Positions 1 through 42,444 of a DNA stretch of 64,000 nucleotides are shown piece by piece; within the stretch, counting starts at the first letter, position 1, and every line of letters starts with the position of its first letter. The position numbers and the translations under genes were made by a program. Below the pieces are notes generated by a model. That model saw only the letters and a program-made list of their open reading frames with translations. It made no database searches and was not told the DNA's origin. Origin of the DNA: an uncultured Alphaproteobacteria bacterium. GTDB taxonomy: Bacteria > Pseudomonadota > Alphaproteobacteria > HIMB59 > GCA-002718135. The stretch is taken from NCBI GenBank assembly GCA_902589095.1, contig CACIRR010000001.1, positions 17,627-81,626 of the forward strand, given 5' to 3'.

Positions 1-611
1 AACAAGCTGGAGATTATCCTGATATTATTGTTGGATGTACTGGTGGCGGTAGTAATTTAGCAGGATTAATGTTTCCTTTCCTTGGTCAGCAATTAAGAGG
101 TGGTCAGAAAATTGATATAATTGGATGTGAACCACTTTCCTGTCCTTCTTTTACTAAAGGCAAGTATGCATATGATCATGGAGATATGGCAAGAATGACA
201 CCGTTAATTAAAATGCACACTCTTGGATCAGACTTTTTACCACCTGCTAATCATTCTGGAGGACTTAGATATCATGGTATGTCTTATCACTTAAGTCATT
301 TATATGATCTTGGTTTAATGAGAGCAAAAGCTTATGGTCAAAAAGATTGTTTTGAGGCTGGAGTAATTTTTGGAAAACAAGAAGGAATTATTCCTGCTCC
401 TGAAGGTAATCACGCTGTTAAGGGAGCTATTGATGCAGCCCTTGAATGTAAAGAAAAGGGTGAGTCAAAGACAATTTTATTTAACTTATGTGGGCATGGA
501 CATTTTGATATGACTGCTTATGACGATTATTTTAGTGGAAAGTTAGCCGATGACTTTTATGATGAAAGTTCAGCAAATCAATCATTGTCTAAGTTACCTG
601 AAATTGCATAA
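1..611 (+). CDS. TrpB-like PLP-dependent enzyme (TrpB2 branch of tryptophan synthase beta family), 5'-truncated by window edge
   Basis: Reading frame is open from nt 3 (QAGDYPDIIVGCTGGGSNLAG...) into the track ORF 69-611. It has the GGGSN phosphate-binding loop, and the segments GGLRYHG and FNLCGHGHFD are typical of TrpB2-type rather than canonical TrpB1 proteins. Confidence 0.85.
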   Translation, partial: QAGDYPDIIVGCTGGGSNLAGLMFPFLGQQLRGGQKIDIIGCEPLSCPSFTKGKYAYDHGDMARMTPLIKMHTLGSDFLPPANHSGGLRYHGMSYHLSHLYDLGLMRAKAYGQKDCFEAGVIFGKQEGIIPAPEGNHAVKGAIDAALECKEKGESKTILFNLCGHGHFDMTAYDDYFSGKLADDFYDESSANQSLSKLPEIA

Positions 612-670
612 ATTGTTTTAGTATTAGAAATTATTGTTTTTCTTTAATAGTAAATGAAATATTGACTATA

Positions 671-747
671 TTTCAAAGGGAGAGATTAATTTATTAACGC
701 CGAAGGAGCAACGACCCGGAAACTCTCAGGCAAAAGGACCTTTGAAA
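671..747 (+). promoter_or_regulatory. Glycine riboswitch aptamer (single canonical aptamer)
   Basis: P1 is tttcaaagg (671-679) paired with cctttgaaa (739-747). Conserved cores GGGAGAG (678-684), CGCCGAAGGAGCAA (698-711) and CTCTCAGGCAAAAGGAC (723-739) match the glycine aptamer consensus. It lies 52 nt upstream of the ATG at 799. Confidence 0.85.
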
Positions 748-798
748 TTAATATCTGAAGATCTTAAATGATTAACAGAAGGGCAAGAGAGATCGAGA

Positions 799-1991: not shown

Positions 1992-3155
1992 ATGGAAAAA
2001 CCTAATAAAAAACCTAATAATCCAAATTTCTCAAGTGGTCCCTGCGCTAAAAGACCTGGGTGGAAAATTGAAAATTTAATTAATGCAAATACAGGTAGAT
2101 CCCATAGGTCAGGTGAAGCAAAATTAAAACTTAAGCTAGTTATTGATAAATCAAAAGAATTATTGAAACTACCTGATGATTATGTTGTAGGTATTATGCC
2201 TGGCTCTGATACTGGTGCCTTAGAGGCATCTCTATGGTCTTTATTAGGTCAAAGAGGTGTTGACATACTAGCTTGGGAAAATTTTGGTAAAGATTGGATA
2301 CAAGATGTTGTCAAACAACTTCAAATTGAAAATTTAACGGTGCATGATGTTGATTATGGTCAATTTCCTGATGTAAGTAGAGTTAATTTCAAAAATGATG
2401 TTGTTTTTACATGGAACGGAACCACTTCTGGAGTTAAAGTTCCAAATGCTGACTGGATACCTGACAATAGAGAAGGTTTAACAATATGTGATGCTACCTC
2501 TGCAATTTTTGCAATGCCTATTGATTACAAAAAATGTGATGTTCTTACTTGGTCTTGGCAAAAAGTATTAGGAGGGGAGGCTGCACATGGAATGATTGCA
2601 ATGTCGCCACGAGCTCTGAGTCGATTAGAGAGTTTTAAGCCTTTATGGCCAATACCCAAGGTTTTTAGAATTGCTAATAACAACAAAATTATAAAAGGTA
2701 TTTTTGAGGGAAGTACAATTAACACACCCTCAATGATTTGTGTTGAAGATGCTCTGGATGGACTTAATTGGGCAGAAAAAAATGGGGGTTTGAATTTTCT
2801 ATTAGATACTTCAATTAAATCTTTTAACTTAATTTATAATTGGGTTGAAAAAAATAATTGGATAACTTTTTTATCTGAAAACAAAAGTAAGGAATACTTA
2901 TCAAATACTGGAATTACATTTAAAATATGTGAAGATTGGTATTTATCAAAAAATGAAGATGAACAAAGATCAATTGTCAAAAAAATTTGCAAAAAATTAT
3001 CCGATGAAAATGTCGCTCATGATATTAATGGTTATGCAAAAGCACCACCATCTTTTAGAGTATGGGCGGGAGGCACCGTTGAACCTTCAAATATTGAATT
3101 ATTACTCCCTTGGTTAGATTGGGCATATTCAGAAGTAAAGAAATCTTATGCCTAA
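1992..3155 (+). CDS. serC: Phosphoserine aminotransferase (long, alphaproteobacterial-type SerC)
   Basis: 387 aa. The N-terminus PNNPNFSSGPCAKRPGW and overall layout are typical of ~390-aa phosphoserine transaminases. It overlaps serA by 8 nt (ATGCCTAA). Confidence 0.88.
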   Translation: MEKPNKKPNNPNFSSGPCAKRPGWKIENLINANTGRSHRSGEAKLKLKLVIDKSKELLKLPDDYVVGIMPGSDTGALEASLWSLLGQRGVDILAWENFGKDWIQDVVKQLQIENLTVHDVDYGQFPDVSRVNFKNDVVFTWNGTTSGVKVPNADWIPDNREGLTICDATSAIFAMPIDYKKCDVLTWSWQKVLGGEAAHGMIAMSPRALSRLESFKPLWPIPKVFRIANNNKIIKGIFEGSTINTPSMICVEDALDGLNWAEKNGGLNFLLDTSIKSFNLIYNWVEKNNWITFLSENKSKEYLSNTGITFKICEDWYLSKNEDEQRSIVKKICKKLSDENVAHDINGYAKAPPSFRVWAGGTVEPSNIELLLPWLDWAYSEVKKSYA

Positions 3156-4086
3156 AGTACTTATTTCAGATGCTATGGATGACATCGCTGAAAAAATACT
3201 TTTATCAAATAATATTAAAGTTGATGTCATGACAAATTTCACACCTGACGAACTTAATCAAAATATTAATTCCTATGATGGGCTAATTGTTCGTTCAGCA
3301 ACTCAAGTGAATAAAGAATTAATAGAAAATGCAAAAAATTTAAAGGTGGTTGGTAGAGCTGGTGCTGGAGTTGATAATATTGATATAAAGGCAGCTAAAC
3401 AGAAAAATATTATTGTAATGAATACTCCTGGAGGGAACACAAATGCTACAGCAGAACATACTTTAGCTTTACTATTATCCTTATCAAGAAAAATTTCTAA
3501 AGCTGATATTACAACACATAAGGGTGAATGGGCAAAGAAAAGTTTAAAAGGAAATGAAATTAAAGGTAAAACTATTGGTATTATTGGTTTTGGAAATGTT
3601 GGTAAAAGATTTGCACAAATGTGTAACGCCCTTGGACTTAAGGTTCTAATATATTCAAAAACATTTGATGCAATTAAAAACGAATTTCCAGATTATATGT
3701 CTTGTGATTTGAATAAAATTTTAAAAGAAGCAGATATAATTAGCTTTCATTGCAAACCAAATCCAGATGGATCCTCAATCATAAGTGCTAAAGAAATTAA
3801 CATTATGAAAAAAAACGTATTAATAATTAATACTGCAAGAGGTAATTTAGTTTCTGAAATAGATTTGAAAGATGCGATTAAAAATAAAACGATTGGTGGT
3901 GTTGCTCTAGATGTTTATGAGGAGGAACCAGCTAAAAATAATATTTTATTTGGATTGGACAATGTATTATTAACCCCCCATATTGCTGCCTCAACTGTTG
4001 AAGCTCAGATAATTGTTGCTGAAATGATAGCAAATCAGTTTGTTGACTTTTTTTTAAAAAATAAGGTTAGTAATTCTGTTATTTAA
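3148..4086 (+). CDS. serA: D-3-phosphoglycerate dehydrogenase, short form without ASB/ACT regulatory domains
   Basis: 312 aa. It has the SerA-type N-terminus (VLISD...DGLIVRSATQV...VVGRAGAGVDNIDI...MNTPGGNTNATAEHT), an NAD fold GIIGFGNVGK, and ends right after the catalytic domain. Confidence 0.82.
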   Translation: MPKVLISDAMDDIAEKILLSNNIKVDVMTNFTPDELNQNINSYDGLIVRSATQVNKELIENAKNLKVVGRAGAGVDNIDIKAAKQKNIIVMNTPGGNTNATAEHTLALLLSLSRKISKADITTHKGEWAKKSLKGNEIKGKTIGIIGFGNVGKRFAQMCNALGLKVLIYSKTFDAIKNEFPDYMSCDLNKILKEADIISFHCKPNPDGSSIISAKEINIMKKNVLIINTARGNLVSEIDLKDAIKNKTIGGVALDVYEEEPAKNNILFGLDNVLLTPHIAASTVEAQIIVAEMIANQFVDFFLKNKVSNSVI

Positions 4087-14430: not shown

Positions 14431-17400
14431 ATGTCAGTTTTTAATGAACAGCCACCTTTAATTAATGTTAAAAAATTTTCCTTATGGTTAAAAAATAATT
14501 ATCCTTTTTTAAAAACAAAGAATTTCAAATTAATAAGATTAAATAGCGAAAGAGATATAAATTTTGTTATTAAATTTAATGAAAATAAAAAATATGTTGT
14601 TAAGATTTCTAACCCCAAAGAGTCTTTAAAGCAGTTAGAATATCAGGATTTATTAATTCAGCATTTACGATCTAATAGACAATTAAAAGAAATCTATCCA
14701 AAAATTCTGCATAAAAAAATTTTATTTTATGAAGATAACAAAAATAGAGTTTGTGCAGTTAGGTTATTGACTTACATAAATGGAAATATGTATGCAAAAT
14801 CAAAAATTAATACTTCTATAGAAAAATCATTAGGTAAATTATTGGCTATACAATCTAAACAGTTAAATAGTTTTATGCATTCTCAAGCAATGCGAATTTT
14901 TGACTGGGATCCCTCAAATATCATATGGGTTAAAAAATTTTTGAGTTTATTTAGTGGGTTCAAAAAAGATGTAATTATTGAGTCAATAAAACAACATGAA
15001 CTATTTGTTCAAAAAAATAAAAAGAACTTAAAACATTCTGTTACTCACGGAGATCCTAATGACTATAATATAGTTGTTAAAAATGAAAAAATAGTTGGCT
15101 TGATTGATTTTGGTGACTCAATTTATGCACCTTCAATAAATGATCTTGCAATTGCACTTTCGTATTCTTTAACGCAAAGTCAAAATTTATTTGATACTCT
15201 CAATAATATAGTTGGCTCTTACAATAAAATTTATCCCATTAATGATTATGAAATCTACTCATTGTTTAGTCTTATAAAATCACGCCTAGTAATTACGCTT
15301 GTAATGGCTGCTAAACAAAGAAAGAAATATCCAGACAATAGATATCTAAGTATTAGTGAAAAAAATGCATGGTTGTTAATTTTTAAACTCAATAAAATTG
15401 ATCCTTATTTTTTTATTGCTGTAATCAGAAGTATTTGCAATAAAGAACCTATAGGTAATTTTAGTCAAAAACTTGATCTTTTGAAAAGTCAAAAATTTGG
15501 AAATATTTTTGATTTTGATCTAAATGATGTGAATAAAAAAATTGTTAACTTTGATAAAAGCAGTATTTTACTTAAATCAAATCCCTCAAACTTTAGACTT
15601 AATAACCTAGTCAAAAAATTTTTAAAAAACGATATTGGTATTGGTTTATATAAAGAAAAAAGAAAAGTTTATAAAAGTAATCATTATATCTCTTCACTTA
15701 ATTCCTCTAAAAGAAGAGATATTCATTTAGGCATAGATATTTTTATTGATGAAACAACTCCTATTAGAGCACCTTTAAGTGGAAAAGTAGTAATTTTACA
15801 TAATAATGATTTTAAATATGATTACGGACCTACGGTAATTTTAGAGCATAAAATTAGTATTTATAAGTTTTATACCTTGTATGGTCATTTATCAAAAAAA
15901 TGTTTGAAGAAATTAAAAGTTGGACAGTCTATTAATAAGGGAGACTGGATAGGTGAAATTGGAGGCTATAACGTTAATGGCAATTGGCCCCCACATTTGC
16001 ATTTTCAAATTATGACATCACTATTAAGTGAAGTTGATAATTTCCCTGGAGTAGGTGAAGAATATTTGCTCAAGATTTGGGAGCAAATTTCACCTGATCC
16101 AAACATCATACTAAAAATTCCTAAAACTTTTTTTACTAACAAATCTAAAATCCTAAATGTTTTATCAAAAAGAAAAAAGAACATAGGTCTTAACTTATCA
16201 ATCTCATATGAAAAACCACTCCATATGCTTGAGGCAAAAGATCAATACTTTTATGATGAGAATGGTAGAAAATATTTAGATTGTGTTAATAATATTTCAC
16301 ATGTTGGGCACTCAAATAGCTATGTTCATGAAGCTCTTGTAAATCAAAATCTTAAATTGAATACTAATACTCGGTACCTTTATGATATTATTAATGAATA
16401 TAGTGAGCGAATATTAAAAACTTTTCCAAAAAAATTAAACAGAATATTTTTTGTTTGTACAGGTTCAGAAGCCAATGATTTAGCATTACGAATTGCAAAT
16501 AATTATACAAAGGCAAATCACATCCTCGTGATGGATAATGCCTATCATGGTCATACTAATTCTCTGATAAACATCAGTCCCTACAAATTTAATAGTAAAG
16601 GGGGTGAAGGTAAAAAAGATAATATCCACATCTTAAGGATGCCAGATGAAATAAGAGGAAAATGGAATGCTAAAAATTCTAAATGGATAAATAACTATAC
16701 TAACGAGGCATTAGAATTTATCAATGAAATGTTCTTAAAAAAATATTCTTTATCAAGTTTTTTTTTCGAGAGTATATTAGGATGTGGTGGTCAAGTTGTA
16801 TTGCCCAAAGGATATCTTAAAAAAATTGTTAAATTAGTTAGAAAAAATAATGGTTTATGCATTGCCGATGAAGTACAAACTGGTTTTGGGAGAGTGGGTA
16901 ATTATTTCTGGGCATTTGAGGAGCATGGCATTGTTCCTGATATAGTCACCTTAGGCAAACCTATGGGTAATGGACACCCTATTGCAGCAGTTGTAACTAC
17001 TGAAAAAATTGCAAAAAGTTTTAATAATGGAATGGAATATTTTAATTCTTTTGGTGGTAATCCAGTTTCTTGTGCAGTTGGTAATGCCGTTCTTGATGTA
17101 ATTCAGAAACAAAATTTACAAAAAAATGCAAAAAAAGTTGGTAATTATTTTATAAATAAACTTCAAAATATCAAAAAAAAATTCCCAAAGTATATTAGTA
17201 AAATTAGTGGAAGGGGGCTTTTTATTGGTATTGACTTGATTGAAAATTCAAATTTTGACTTACCTAATCAAAAACTTGCAACAAAATTAATCAATAACTT
17301 AAGATTAAAGGGCATTCTTTTGAGCACTGATGGCCCGTATAATAATGTAATCAAAATTAAACCACCATTAGTTTTCAACAAAGATAATGTTGATTATGTT

Positions 17401-17445
17401 TGTAGTGAGATAAATAATTTTTTACTGCATGAAAATAAAAAATAA
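14431..17445 (+). CDS. Three-domain fusion: aminoglycoside-phosphotransferase/hydroxylysine-kinase-like domain + M23 peptidase domain + class-III aminotransferase-fold (phospho-lyase-like) domain
   Basis: Kinase catalytic loop HGDPNDYN (H206-N213) and DFGD. M23 zinc motifs HLGID (H432-D436) and HLH (H522-H524). Class-III PLP domain has [17 protein letters not shown] and a lysine in [12 protein letters not shown] (K843), closely resembling the ETNPPL/PHYKPL family signature. Confidence 0.85.
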
Positions 17446-35876: not shown

Positions 35877-35952
<76 letters not shown>

Positions 35953-42354: not shown

Positions 42355-42444
42355 TGGCGGAGAGACAGAGATTCGAACTCTGGAAGGTGTTGCCACCTTG
42401 CCGGTTTTCAAGACCGGTGCTTTCAACCGCTCAGCCATCTCTCC
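42355..42444 (-). tRNA. tRNA-Ser (anticodon TGA), long variable arm, CCA encoded
   Basis: The reverse complement folds with acceptor GGAGAGA/TCTCTCC, anticodon stem CCGGT/ACCGG with loop CTTGAAA, a long variable arm, and T arm CAGAG-TTCGAAT-CTCTG. Confidence 0.95.

Follow-up and report, generated by a model that had tools for sequence, protein, structure and literature searches.

A single glycine riboswitch aptamer precedes the DUF1015-serC-serA operon in a 64,000-nucleotide (nt) stretch from an uncultured Alphaproteobacteria bacterium (contig CACIRR010000001.1; G+C content, 28.3%), here called the window, which always means the whole stretch. Here, we report that this element, judged by its sequence, is a member of the type-1 singlet class of glycine riboswitches with an unusual, previously listed target, and that it probably switches translation of DUF1015-serC-serA on when glycine is bound. 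The translational ON reading follows from the type-1 architecture, from the overlap between a helix enclosing the start codon (helix S) and the P1-like "ghost" hairpin behind the aptamer, and from a layout shared with leaders of gcvT.

A protein-based genome scan with DUF1015 returned 21 close relatives (68 to 91% identity), all in marine single-cell or metagenome-assembled genomes titled uncultured Alphaproteobacteria, Pelagibacteraceae, or MarineAlpha5, and a distant Bacteroidales homologue (28%); from these titles, the source is called SAR11-like. The upstream region was reached in 19 close loci, with the aptamer at the same place in 13 and no aptamer in 6. In metagenomes, the invariant 41-nt core of the aptamer retrieved 77 loci; the search pattern fixed the CCC of the P3b loop, whose invariance there carries no covariation information. 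The combined set (metagenome loci, genome loci, and the window) held 38 distinct single-aptamer leaders before the same DUF1015 gene, about 40 tandem riboswitches before gcvT, and tandem riboswitches before the orthologous DUF1015 gene at 4 loci (L064, L069, L075, and L089). Pairing and covariation in the aptamer and ghost were counted in 37 sequences. All leader and operon features described below lie on the + strand.

Aptamer and ghost hairpin

The Rfam covariance-model scan suggested in the original prediction was run over the whole window and gave a significant Glycine match at 667-751 (RF00504; 70.4 bits versus a gathering score of 32; full model, 1 to 94; E-value, 1.2e-12 in the 64-kb window), which bears out the claim of a canonical glycine aptamer with a P1 of 9 base pairs (bp). 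P1 joins 671-679 (5' strand) to 739-747 (3' strand) in the Rfam consensus structure, and 6 of its 9 pairs have two-sided changes. The conserved junction nucleotides and binding-core positions all agree with the Rfam model, and the core does not vary among 37 relatives; the aptamer corresponds to aptamer 1 of tandem riboswitches. P2 and P3 show hardly any variation; the P3 adenine segments GCAAC (708-712) and GGAAAC (718-723) are invariant, and an A-minor contact between them and the ghost is predicted. On these sequence grounds, 667-751 is a real glycine riboswitch aptamer, and glycine binding is predicted.

A permissive Rfam scan of 560-900 gave no further RF00504 match even at an E-value of ≤10, and besides the aptamer returned chance-level matches to STAXI and tsr24 only. 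The 51 nt from the aptamer to the AUG have neither the CCGAAGG nor the CUCUCAGG core that would make the leader a tandem.

These 51 nt carry a ghost aptamer hairpin (754-779), recognised by conserved pairing, covariation, and alignment with the P1 of aptamer 2 in L064. Its lower stem, UCUG/CAGA (754-757/776-779), is paired in 100% of cells, with CUG/CAG invariant in 37 of 37 sequences; at 4 bp in the window and 4 to 6 bp among relatives, it is shorter than the 9-bp P1. The purine mispairs above it (AA/AA, a 2 × 2 loop at 758-759/774-775), assigned at the sequence level, become GA/AA in three relatives (L007, L072, and L011). The upper stem, GAUC/GAUU (760-763/770-773), is paired in 100% of cells at its first two pairs and in 95.8% at the rest, and one of its pairs alternates between U-A (21 sequences) and C-G (14 sequences). 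The loop (764-769) varies in length and sequence among relatives, and the energy of the hairpin is −6.5 kcal/mol. P1 and the ghost together were paired in 92.5% of cells, with two-sided changes in 8 pairs, and had a covariation score of 0.233 (versus 0.120 shuffled), a value reached in 0 of 500 shuffles.

The ghost strands and the G-run behind them align with the P1 strands of aptamer 2 (AUAUCUG ... ACAGAU-GGGG) in the tandem orthologues. Aptamer 2 of L064 reads AUAUCUG-GAAAA...UAUACAGAU-GGGG and the window reads AUAUCUG-AAGAUC...AUUAACAGAA-GGGC; the ghost is therefore what is left of aptamer 2, its P1, once the binding core is deleted. Aptamer 2 is complete but reduced at these four loci; its score, taken in L064 (tandem riboswitch at 2585-2735), was 22.3 bits (E-value, 0.02), below the Rfam threshold. 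The original prediction had recognised a singlet with a degenerate ghost partner, which stands, and had located that partner in CAGAAGGGCAA (776-786) as a relic of a CGAAGGGGCAA core, which is ruled out. That segment aligns with ACAGAUGGGG, the end of aptamer 2 in the tandem orthologues; its CAGA is the ghost 3' strand, and its GGG is the G-run.

Aligning 748-798 among relatives, where a check for covariation had been suggested, gave a conserved ghost with a covarying pair; a 6-bp helix that had been proposed within this stretch, joining 760-765 to 789-794 and occluding the Shine-Dalgarno sequence, was not conserved. The helix is present in the window, weak (−3.8 kcal/mol) and clade-specific. 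Among the 37 relatives, 67.7% of its cells are paired and 2 of its 6 pairs are mostly unpaired; only a GAUC/GAUC core is kept in the closest clade, and the helix competes with the ghost upper stem. That clade has GAUC at 760-763 and at 791-794, and GAU[C/U] at 770-773, so that the strand at 760-763 could pair with either 770-773 or 791-794, and its column covaries with both. These alternative pairings may add a further layer to the platform in this clade or may simply reflect shared ancestry.

Helix S and switch polarity

In helix S, 777-784 (AGAAGGGC) can pair with 813-820 (GCCUUUCU), the codons Trp5-Pro6-Phe7-Tyr8 of DUF1015; the 5' strand shares 777-779 with the ghost 3' strand and also takes in the G-run. 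At this anchored position, contiguous complementarity was found in 38 of 38 leaders (5 to 12 bp; mean, 9.4), overlapping the ghost 3' strand by 2 to 5 nt in 35 of them. When the post-ghost 16-mer was searched unanchored against the first 120 nt of the coding sequence, its best partner fell on codons 4 to 8 in 36 of 38 leaders; the pairing averaged 9.5 bp versus 6.6 bp for shuffles. The stems lie at about −22 to −15 and +15 to +22 relative to the start, and the 28-nt loop (785-812) holds a purine-rich pre-AUG stretch and the AUG. Many relatives extend the helix loop-proximally by pairing the untranslated region just 3' of GGGC with codons 3 to 5 (CUAGAU/AUUUGG), and a Tyr8-to-Cys codon change in L001 and L019 brings helix S to 10 bp.

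Codon choices at Pro6, Phe7, and Trp5 point to selection on this pairing. Across the 38 leaders, Pro6 is CCT in 37 and CCC in 1; Pro12 is CCT in 14, CCC in 13, CCA in 10, and CCG in 1. Phe7 is TTC in 28 of 38 leaders, including 22 of 22 of the CAGA[A/U]GGG[C/U] type, where it gives a G-C pair; it is TTT in 5 of 6 riboswitch-less orthologues, and the phenylalanine codons of six annotated window genes are TTT (99) and TTC (11). Trp5 (UGG) occurs in the singlet lineages only, the same position being Lys in riboswitch-less and Leu or Ile in tandem orthologues.

The minimum-free-energy structure of 748-825 (−13.4 kcal/mol) contains the full helix S. The ghost with a 5-bp helix S core came to −9.9 kcal/mol versus −10.9 kcal/mol for the full helix S with the upper ghost stem; in this folding model, the two competing states are nearly balanced, as a switch requires.

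The G-run (GGG, 781-783), one nucleotide past the ghost in the window and present in 38 of 38 leaders, forms the core of the helix S 5' strand. By analogy with published type-1 singlets, we propose that it pairs as a pseudoknot with CCC in the P3b apical loop (715-717, placed by its Rfam alignment position), which is present in 13 of 13 protein-retrieved loci carrying the aptamer.

Leaders of gcvT have a comparable arrangement. Most of those from the same lineage form a 7- to 10-bp helix from the G-run right after aptamer 2 that covers the start codon, with compensatory changes (GGGCAAAGU/ACUUUGUCU, GGUAACU/AGUUACC, and GGCAAAA/UUUUGCC), and gcvT riboswitches are ON switches where tested. The SAR11-like gcvT tandems (Meyer et al. 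2009, PMC2704228) and the tandem DUF1015 leaders have a 41-nt aptamer-1 core identical to that of the window, the same ...ACAGA-GGG(G)... junction after the switching helix, and a start-region helix from that G-run; their aptamer 2 keeps the glycine-binding core, whereas the window keeps only its P1, as the ghost. The predicted start of SAR11-like gcvT leaders (e.g., L030, L031, and L039) is often UUG within the hairpin, with an AGGA Shine-Dalgarno sequence in the loop. On one marine metagenome contig, an IMES-4 RNA motif (RF02037; 83 bits; L030:2302-2381) is present some 760 nt ahead of the glycine riboswitch of gcvT.

In the mechanism that we propose, the aptamer (667-751) would bind glycine, and binding would stabilise the ghost (754-779) together with the pseudoknot CCC 715-717/GGG 781-783, as described for type-1 singlets. 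Without glycine, 777-784 would be free to pair with 813-820, and the resulting helix S would shut the ribosome-binding region and the AUG in its 28-nt loop and lower initiation. With glycine, the ghost and pseudoknot would occupy 776-783, helix S would not form, and the start region would open; serC and serA, whose junctions are tight or overlapping, would follow DUF1015. We assume that helix S is inhibitory and that the pseudoknot forms, and from the two we infer the ON polarity. The reporter fused at the ATG that had originally been proposed would remove half of the regulatory helix.

No terminator-like site was found in 500-1000, in agreement with the original prediction, and because an intrinsic terminator is lacking there, translational control is the most plausible mode. 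Whole-leader folding z-scores were unremarkable (−0.17 and +0.21), as expected because the RNA is AU-rich. A promoter scan gave weak consensus matches only, one of which places the transcription start within P1; no start is claimed.

Several results weigh against this mechanism. Helix S of the window itself is 8 bp long (P of ~0.055 versus shuffles), and since the 38 leaders are related, their codons are not independent counts. The pairs of the proposed pseudoknot are constant among the leaders and are supported only by analogy with published type-1 singlets; without the pseudoknot, 5 bp at the core of helix S (more in some relatives) can form alongside the ghost. An opening-energy model (−14 to +5 around the AUG) with P1 and the ghost forced made the start slightly more closed (+0.8 ± 1.3 kcal/mol), a shift seen in 29 of 38 sequences; the model cannot represent the pseudoknot, its result depends on the interval opened, and the effect is small and of mixed sign, so it was not used for the verdict. 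A candidate P0 strand (660-665) is complementary to the linker (748-753) in the window, where the two would pair; across relatives, this helix is paired in 75.6% of cells, which is also the mean of the shuffles, and 263 of the 500 shuffles reached that value. No G-A/A-G kink-turn core was seen on reading the window sequence.

The metabolic setting also speaks for the opposite polarity, which the original prediction had favoured: a translational OFF switch, in which glycine promotes occlusion of the ribosome-binding site as feedback on serine and glycine biosynthesis. Such feedback is metabolically sensible, since SerC is an equivalog-level phosphoserine transaminase, SAR11 relatives with serA and serC genes are glycine/serine prototrophs, and a DUF1015 protein complements an Escherichia coli serB mutant. 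It is the more so with a dehydrogenase whose match to the D-3-phosphoglycerate dehydrogenase (PGDH) model stops at position 310 of 525 and for which control at the gene level would be useful. Helix S, moreover, adjoins the ghost without a spacer and so could stack on the formed ghost, and the naive opening-energy model leaned toward a closed start. Nevertheless, the type-1 architecture and the kept aptamer 1 go with ON switches, whereas OFF switches are type-2 and stand before transporters. The G-run and ghost 3' strand are the 5' strand of the start-enclosing helix, an ON-type topology common with gcvT leaders. The weak, poorly conserved helix 760-765/789-794 uses the upper-stem strand of the ghost, so glycine would disfavour it. 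An anti-P1 helix, in which 739-745 might pair with ACAGAGG, has up to 7 bp in certain relatives but only 5 bp in the window; since it would have to outcompete a 9-bp P1 made earlier in transcription, it was rejected as the main mechanism. We therefore find the OFF polarity unsupported by the architecture and consider it unlikely. A further candidate, in which an AGAU motif ahead of the AUG would pair with the 5' strand of the ghost, was seen by eye and rejected (4 to 6 bp; absent in some clades).

A functional aptamer could also exert control by Rho-dependent termination or mRNA stability, with either polarity, the complementarity of 777-784 with 813-820 being inherited or otherwise used. The Shine-Dalgarno sequence is weak and variable in the leaders, and in the window the loop of helix S, rather than its stem, contains both it and the AUG, which makes inhibition by helix S uncertain; the absence of an intrinsic terminator is likewise compatible with such control. 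Set against this, the codon signals at Pro6, Phe7, and the lineage-specific Trp5 point to selection on pairing, as does the loop-proximal extension in many relatives, and the gcvT relatives have their start codon inside the equivalent helix. We regard control outside helix S as quite improbable.

Known glycine riboswitches and leader classes

In type-1 singlets, a P1-like ghost helix whose loop varies comes after the aptamer, and all of these singlets are predicted to be ON switches (Ruff et al. 2016, PMC5066625). They have purine-purine mispairs on the ghost, a long aptamer P1, and a short ghost helix; 85% have a pseudoknot between 3 or 4 C's of the P3b loop and 3 or 4 G's after the ghost, often at a site shared with the alternative helix of the platform, and the ligand stabilises the ghost by 2 to 3 kcal/mol only (Torgerson et al. 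2018, PMC6239177). They retain aptamer 1 and originate from decaying tandems, and 93% of them stand before glycine cleavage genes (Crum et al. 2019). The window element is like these singlets (e.g., those of Listeria monocytogenes and Clostridium tetani) in having one aptamer, a long P1, a short P1-like ghost with purine mispairs atop it, conserved P3 adenines, a G-run facing the P3b C's, and a ghost 3' strand that, with the G-run, overlaps the alternative platform helix. P0 and its kink-turn are the sole class feature without support in the window. Two further differences concern the output. The type-1 singlets studied so far switch an intrinsic terminator, whereas the window has no terminator and its alternative helix reaches codons 5 to 8, which implies translational control; and the targets here are DUF1015-serC-serA in place of the glycine cleavage system.

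Known glycine OFF switches, namely type-2 singlets and tandems at sodium:alanine symporter genes (Khani et al. 2018, PMC5829553; Babina et al. 2017, PMC5666159), have the same aptamer class. Unlike the window, they have the ghost 5' of the aptamer or a better-conserved aptamer 2, and they control transporters. Type-2 singlets also have no pseudoknot; the window, with its G-run, 3' ghost, and downstream DUF1015, serC, and serA, does not resemble the OFF class.

The DUF1015 family corresponds, we assume, to COG4198. In Sargasso Sea data, single-aptamer glycine riboswitches were listed upstream of COG4198 genes, with one upstream of serC (Kazanov et al. 2007, PMC2211319). The association of riboswitch and gene is thus not new, and the target, described as uncommon in the original prediction, is unusual without being novel. 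The aptamers printed for three scaffolds (CH011954, CH011983, and CH008153; PMC2211319) match the window family, one of them ending in ...GGACCTTTGAAATTA as the window does, and the listed elements are almost certainly, from their sequences, the same element. That survey gave the aptamer and the downstream COG only, assigned the fragments to Firmicutes, and covered no ghost, platform, polarity, or operon; the architecture and polarity of this element seem not to have been analysed before.

The gene order in L064, L069, L075, and L089 is the same as that of the window, and is complete in L069 and L075. The riboswitch-less orthologues (L012-L015, L017, and L018) have a spacer of about 50 nt with an AAGGA-type Shine-Dalgarno sequence before DUF1015. 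Since tandem, singlet, and riboswitch-less leaders stand in the same gene order, they represent one orthologous locus in three states, and tandem, singlet with ghost, and none form a clean natural series illustrating the published model of tandem-to-singlet decay. The tandem DUF1015 leaders carry a duplicated AGAUGGGGUA motif before the AUG, and the N terminus of DUF1015 in L064, L075, and L089 is MVTILPFKG.

The six aptamer-free loci mean that loss has occurred at this locus, and the window aptamer might accordingly be a decaying relic that regulates nothing and is heading for the same end. This we consider highly implausible: although DUF1015 identity among the 38 leaders falls to about 69%, the aptamer core, the ghost stem, and the G-run either stay invariant or covary, and the conserved binding-core positions match the Rfam model throughout.

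The operon and its metabolic role

The regulated genes are those named in the original prediction. The first is the DUF1015 family gene (799-1989; Pfam PF06245, 211 bits), whose protein gave no match at an E-value of ≤1 in a PDB sequence search. Next comes serC, encoding a phosphoserine transaminase (1992-3155; NF002841, 596 bits, and TIGR01365, 545 bits, both above the cut-off), which starts 2 nt past the DUF1015 stop. The third gene, serA (3148-4086), overlaps the serC 3' end by 8 nt at its 5' end and encodes a PGDH-like enzyme of 312 amino acids (aa; best NCBIfam match, TIGR01327 PGDH, 323 bits). This enzyme covers model positions 1 to 310 of 525, and the C-terminal part of the model is absent. 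We take the missing part to be the regulatory ACT domain, which binds serine. Downstream, the operon is bounded by a convergent htpG.

Directly upstream of the leader lies a gene for a TrpB-like (TrpB2-type) pyridoxal-phosphate enzyme (window positions 1-611, + strand; NF009057, 236 bits; C-terminal 180 aa). It occupies the same position in L001-L019, L032, L042, L064, L069, and L075, which include all three leader classes. Where contigs are long enough, the order trpB-like gene, leader, DUF1015-serC-serA, and convergent htpG is the same in the tandem, singlet, and riboswitch-less classes. TrpB2 enzymes use O-phosphoserine in place of serine, and the conserved neighbourhood may tie phosphoserine from DUF1015 and SerC to the TrpB2-type enzyme. 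Because it lies upstream of the riboswitch, the TrpB-like gene is outside riboswitch control.

Elsewhere in the window, a 1,004-aa protein (14431-17445, + strand; best match, NF004799 "hypothetical protein," 1,002 bits, under the cut-off of 1,128) has a long N-terminal region and a class-III aminotransferase domain (residues ~575 to 1000). There are two tRNA genes (35877-35949, + strand, 74.4 bits; 42358-42444, − strand, 60.6 bits), the latter with a long variable arm. The remaining window genes annotated so far are housekeeping genes (secD, secF, uvrA, gyrA, recG, mfd, and mazG).

GlyA already offers a route from glycine to serine. If the switch is ON, biosynthesis would therefore be a poor explanation for the operon; a role in catabolism or assimilation would fit better and would agree with the type-1 rule of control over glycine consumption. 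Published work bears on the direction of the pathway in two ways. Serine-biosynthesis genes in some SAR11 subclades (a "serACB" operon in HIMB114 and "serABC" in subclade IIIa) have been taken to indicate glycine/serine prototrophy. A 2026 preprint (10.1101/2024.10.14.618325) reports complementation of E. coli serB by a DUF1015 protein, a resemblance of the family to the serine kinase SbnI, and a need for the Bacteroides DUF1015 homologue when serine is the nitrogen source, and it proposes bidirectional "SerBK" proteins. We tentatively suggest, as a possibility short of an even chance, that glycine induces DUF1015, SerC, and SerA to run backwards, from serine to phosphoserine (DUF1015 as kinase), to 3-phosphohydroxypyruvate, and to 3-phosphoglycerate.

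Were this reverse pathway real, it would feed glycine and serine carbon into gluconeogenesis, the use of SAR11 serA and serC genes as a prototrophy marker would need re-reading, and the riboswitch would be an in vivo pointer to the disputed direction of the DUF1015 enzymes. The proposed mechanism, if correct, would show a type-1 singlet wired to a translational platform that extends into coding sequence, one that has recruited codons 5 to 8, including the lineage-specific Trp, so that the N terminus of the protein would have co-evolved with the RNA switch. Switch polarity is also a cheap read-out of the purpose of the DUF1015-serC-serA operon. An OFF response would make this element the first characterised glycine feedback switch on serine synthesis. 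An ON response would back the proposal that DUF1015 proteins are serine kinases and would argue that abundant, streamlined marine bacteria assimilate glycine and serine into 3-phosphoglycerate via this operon.

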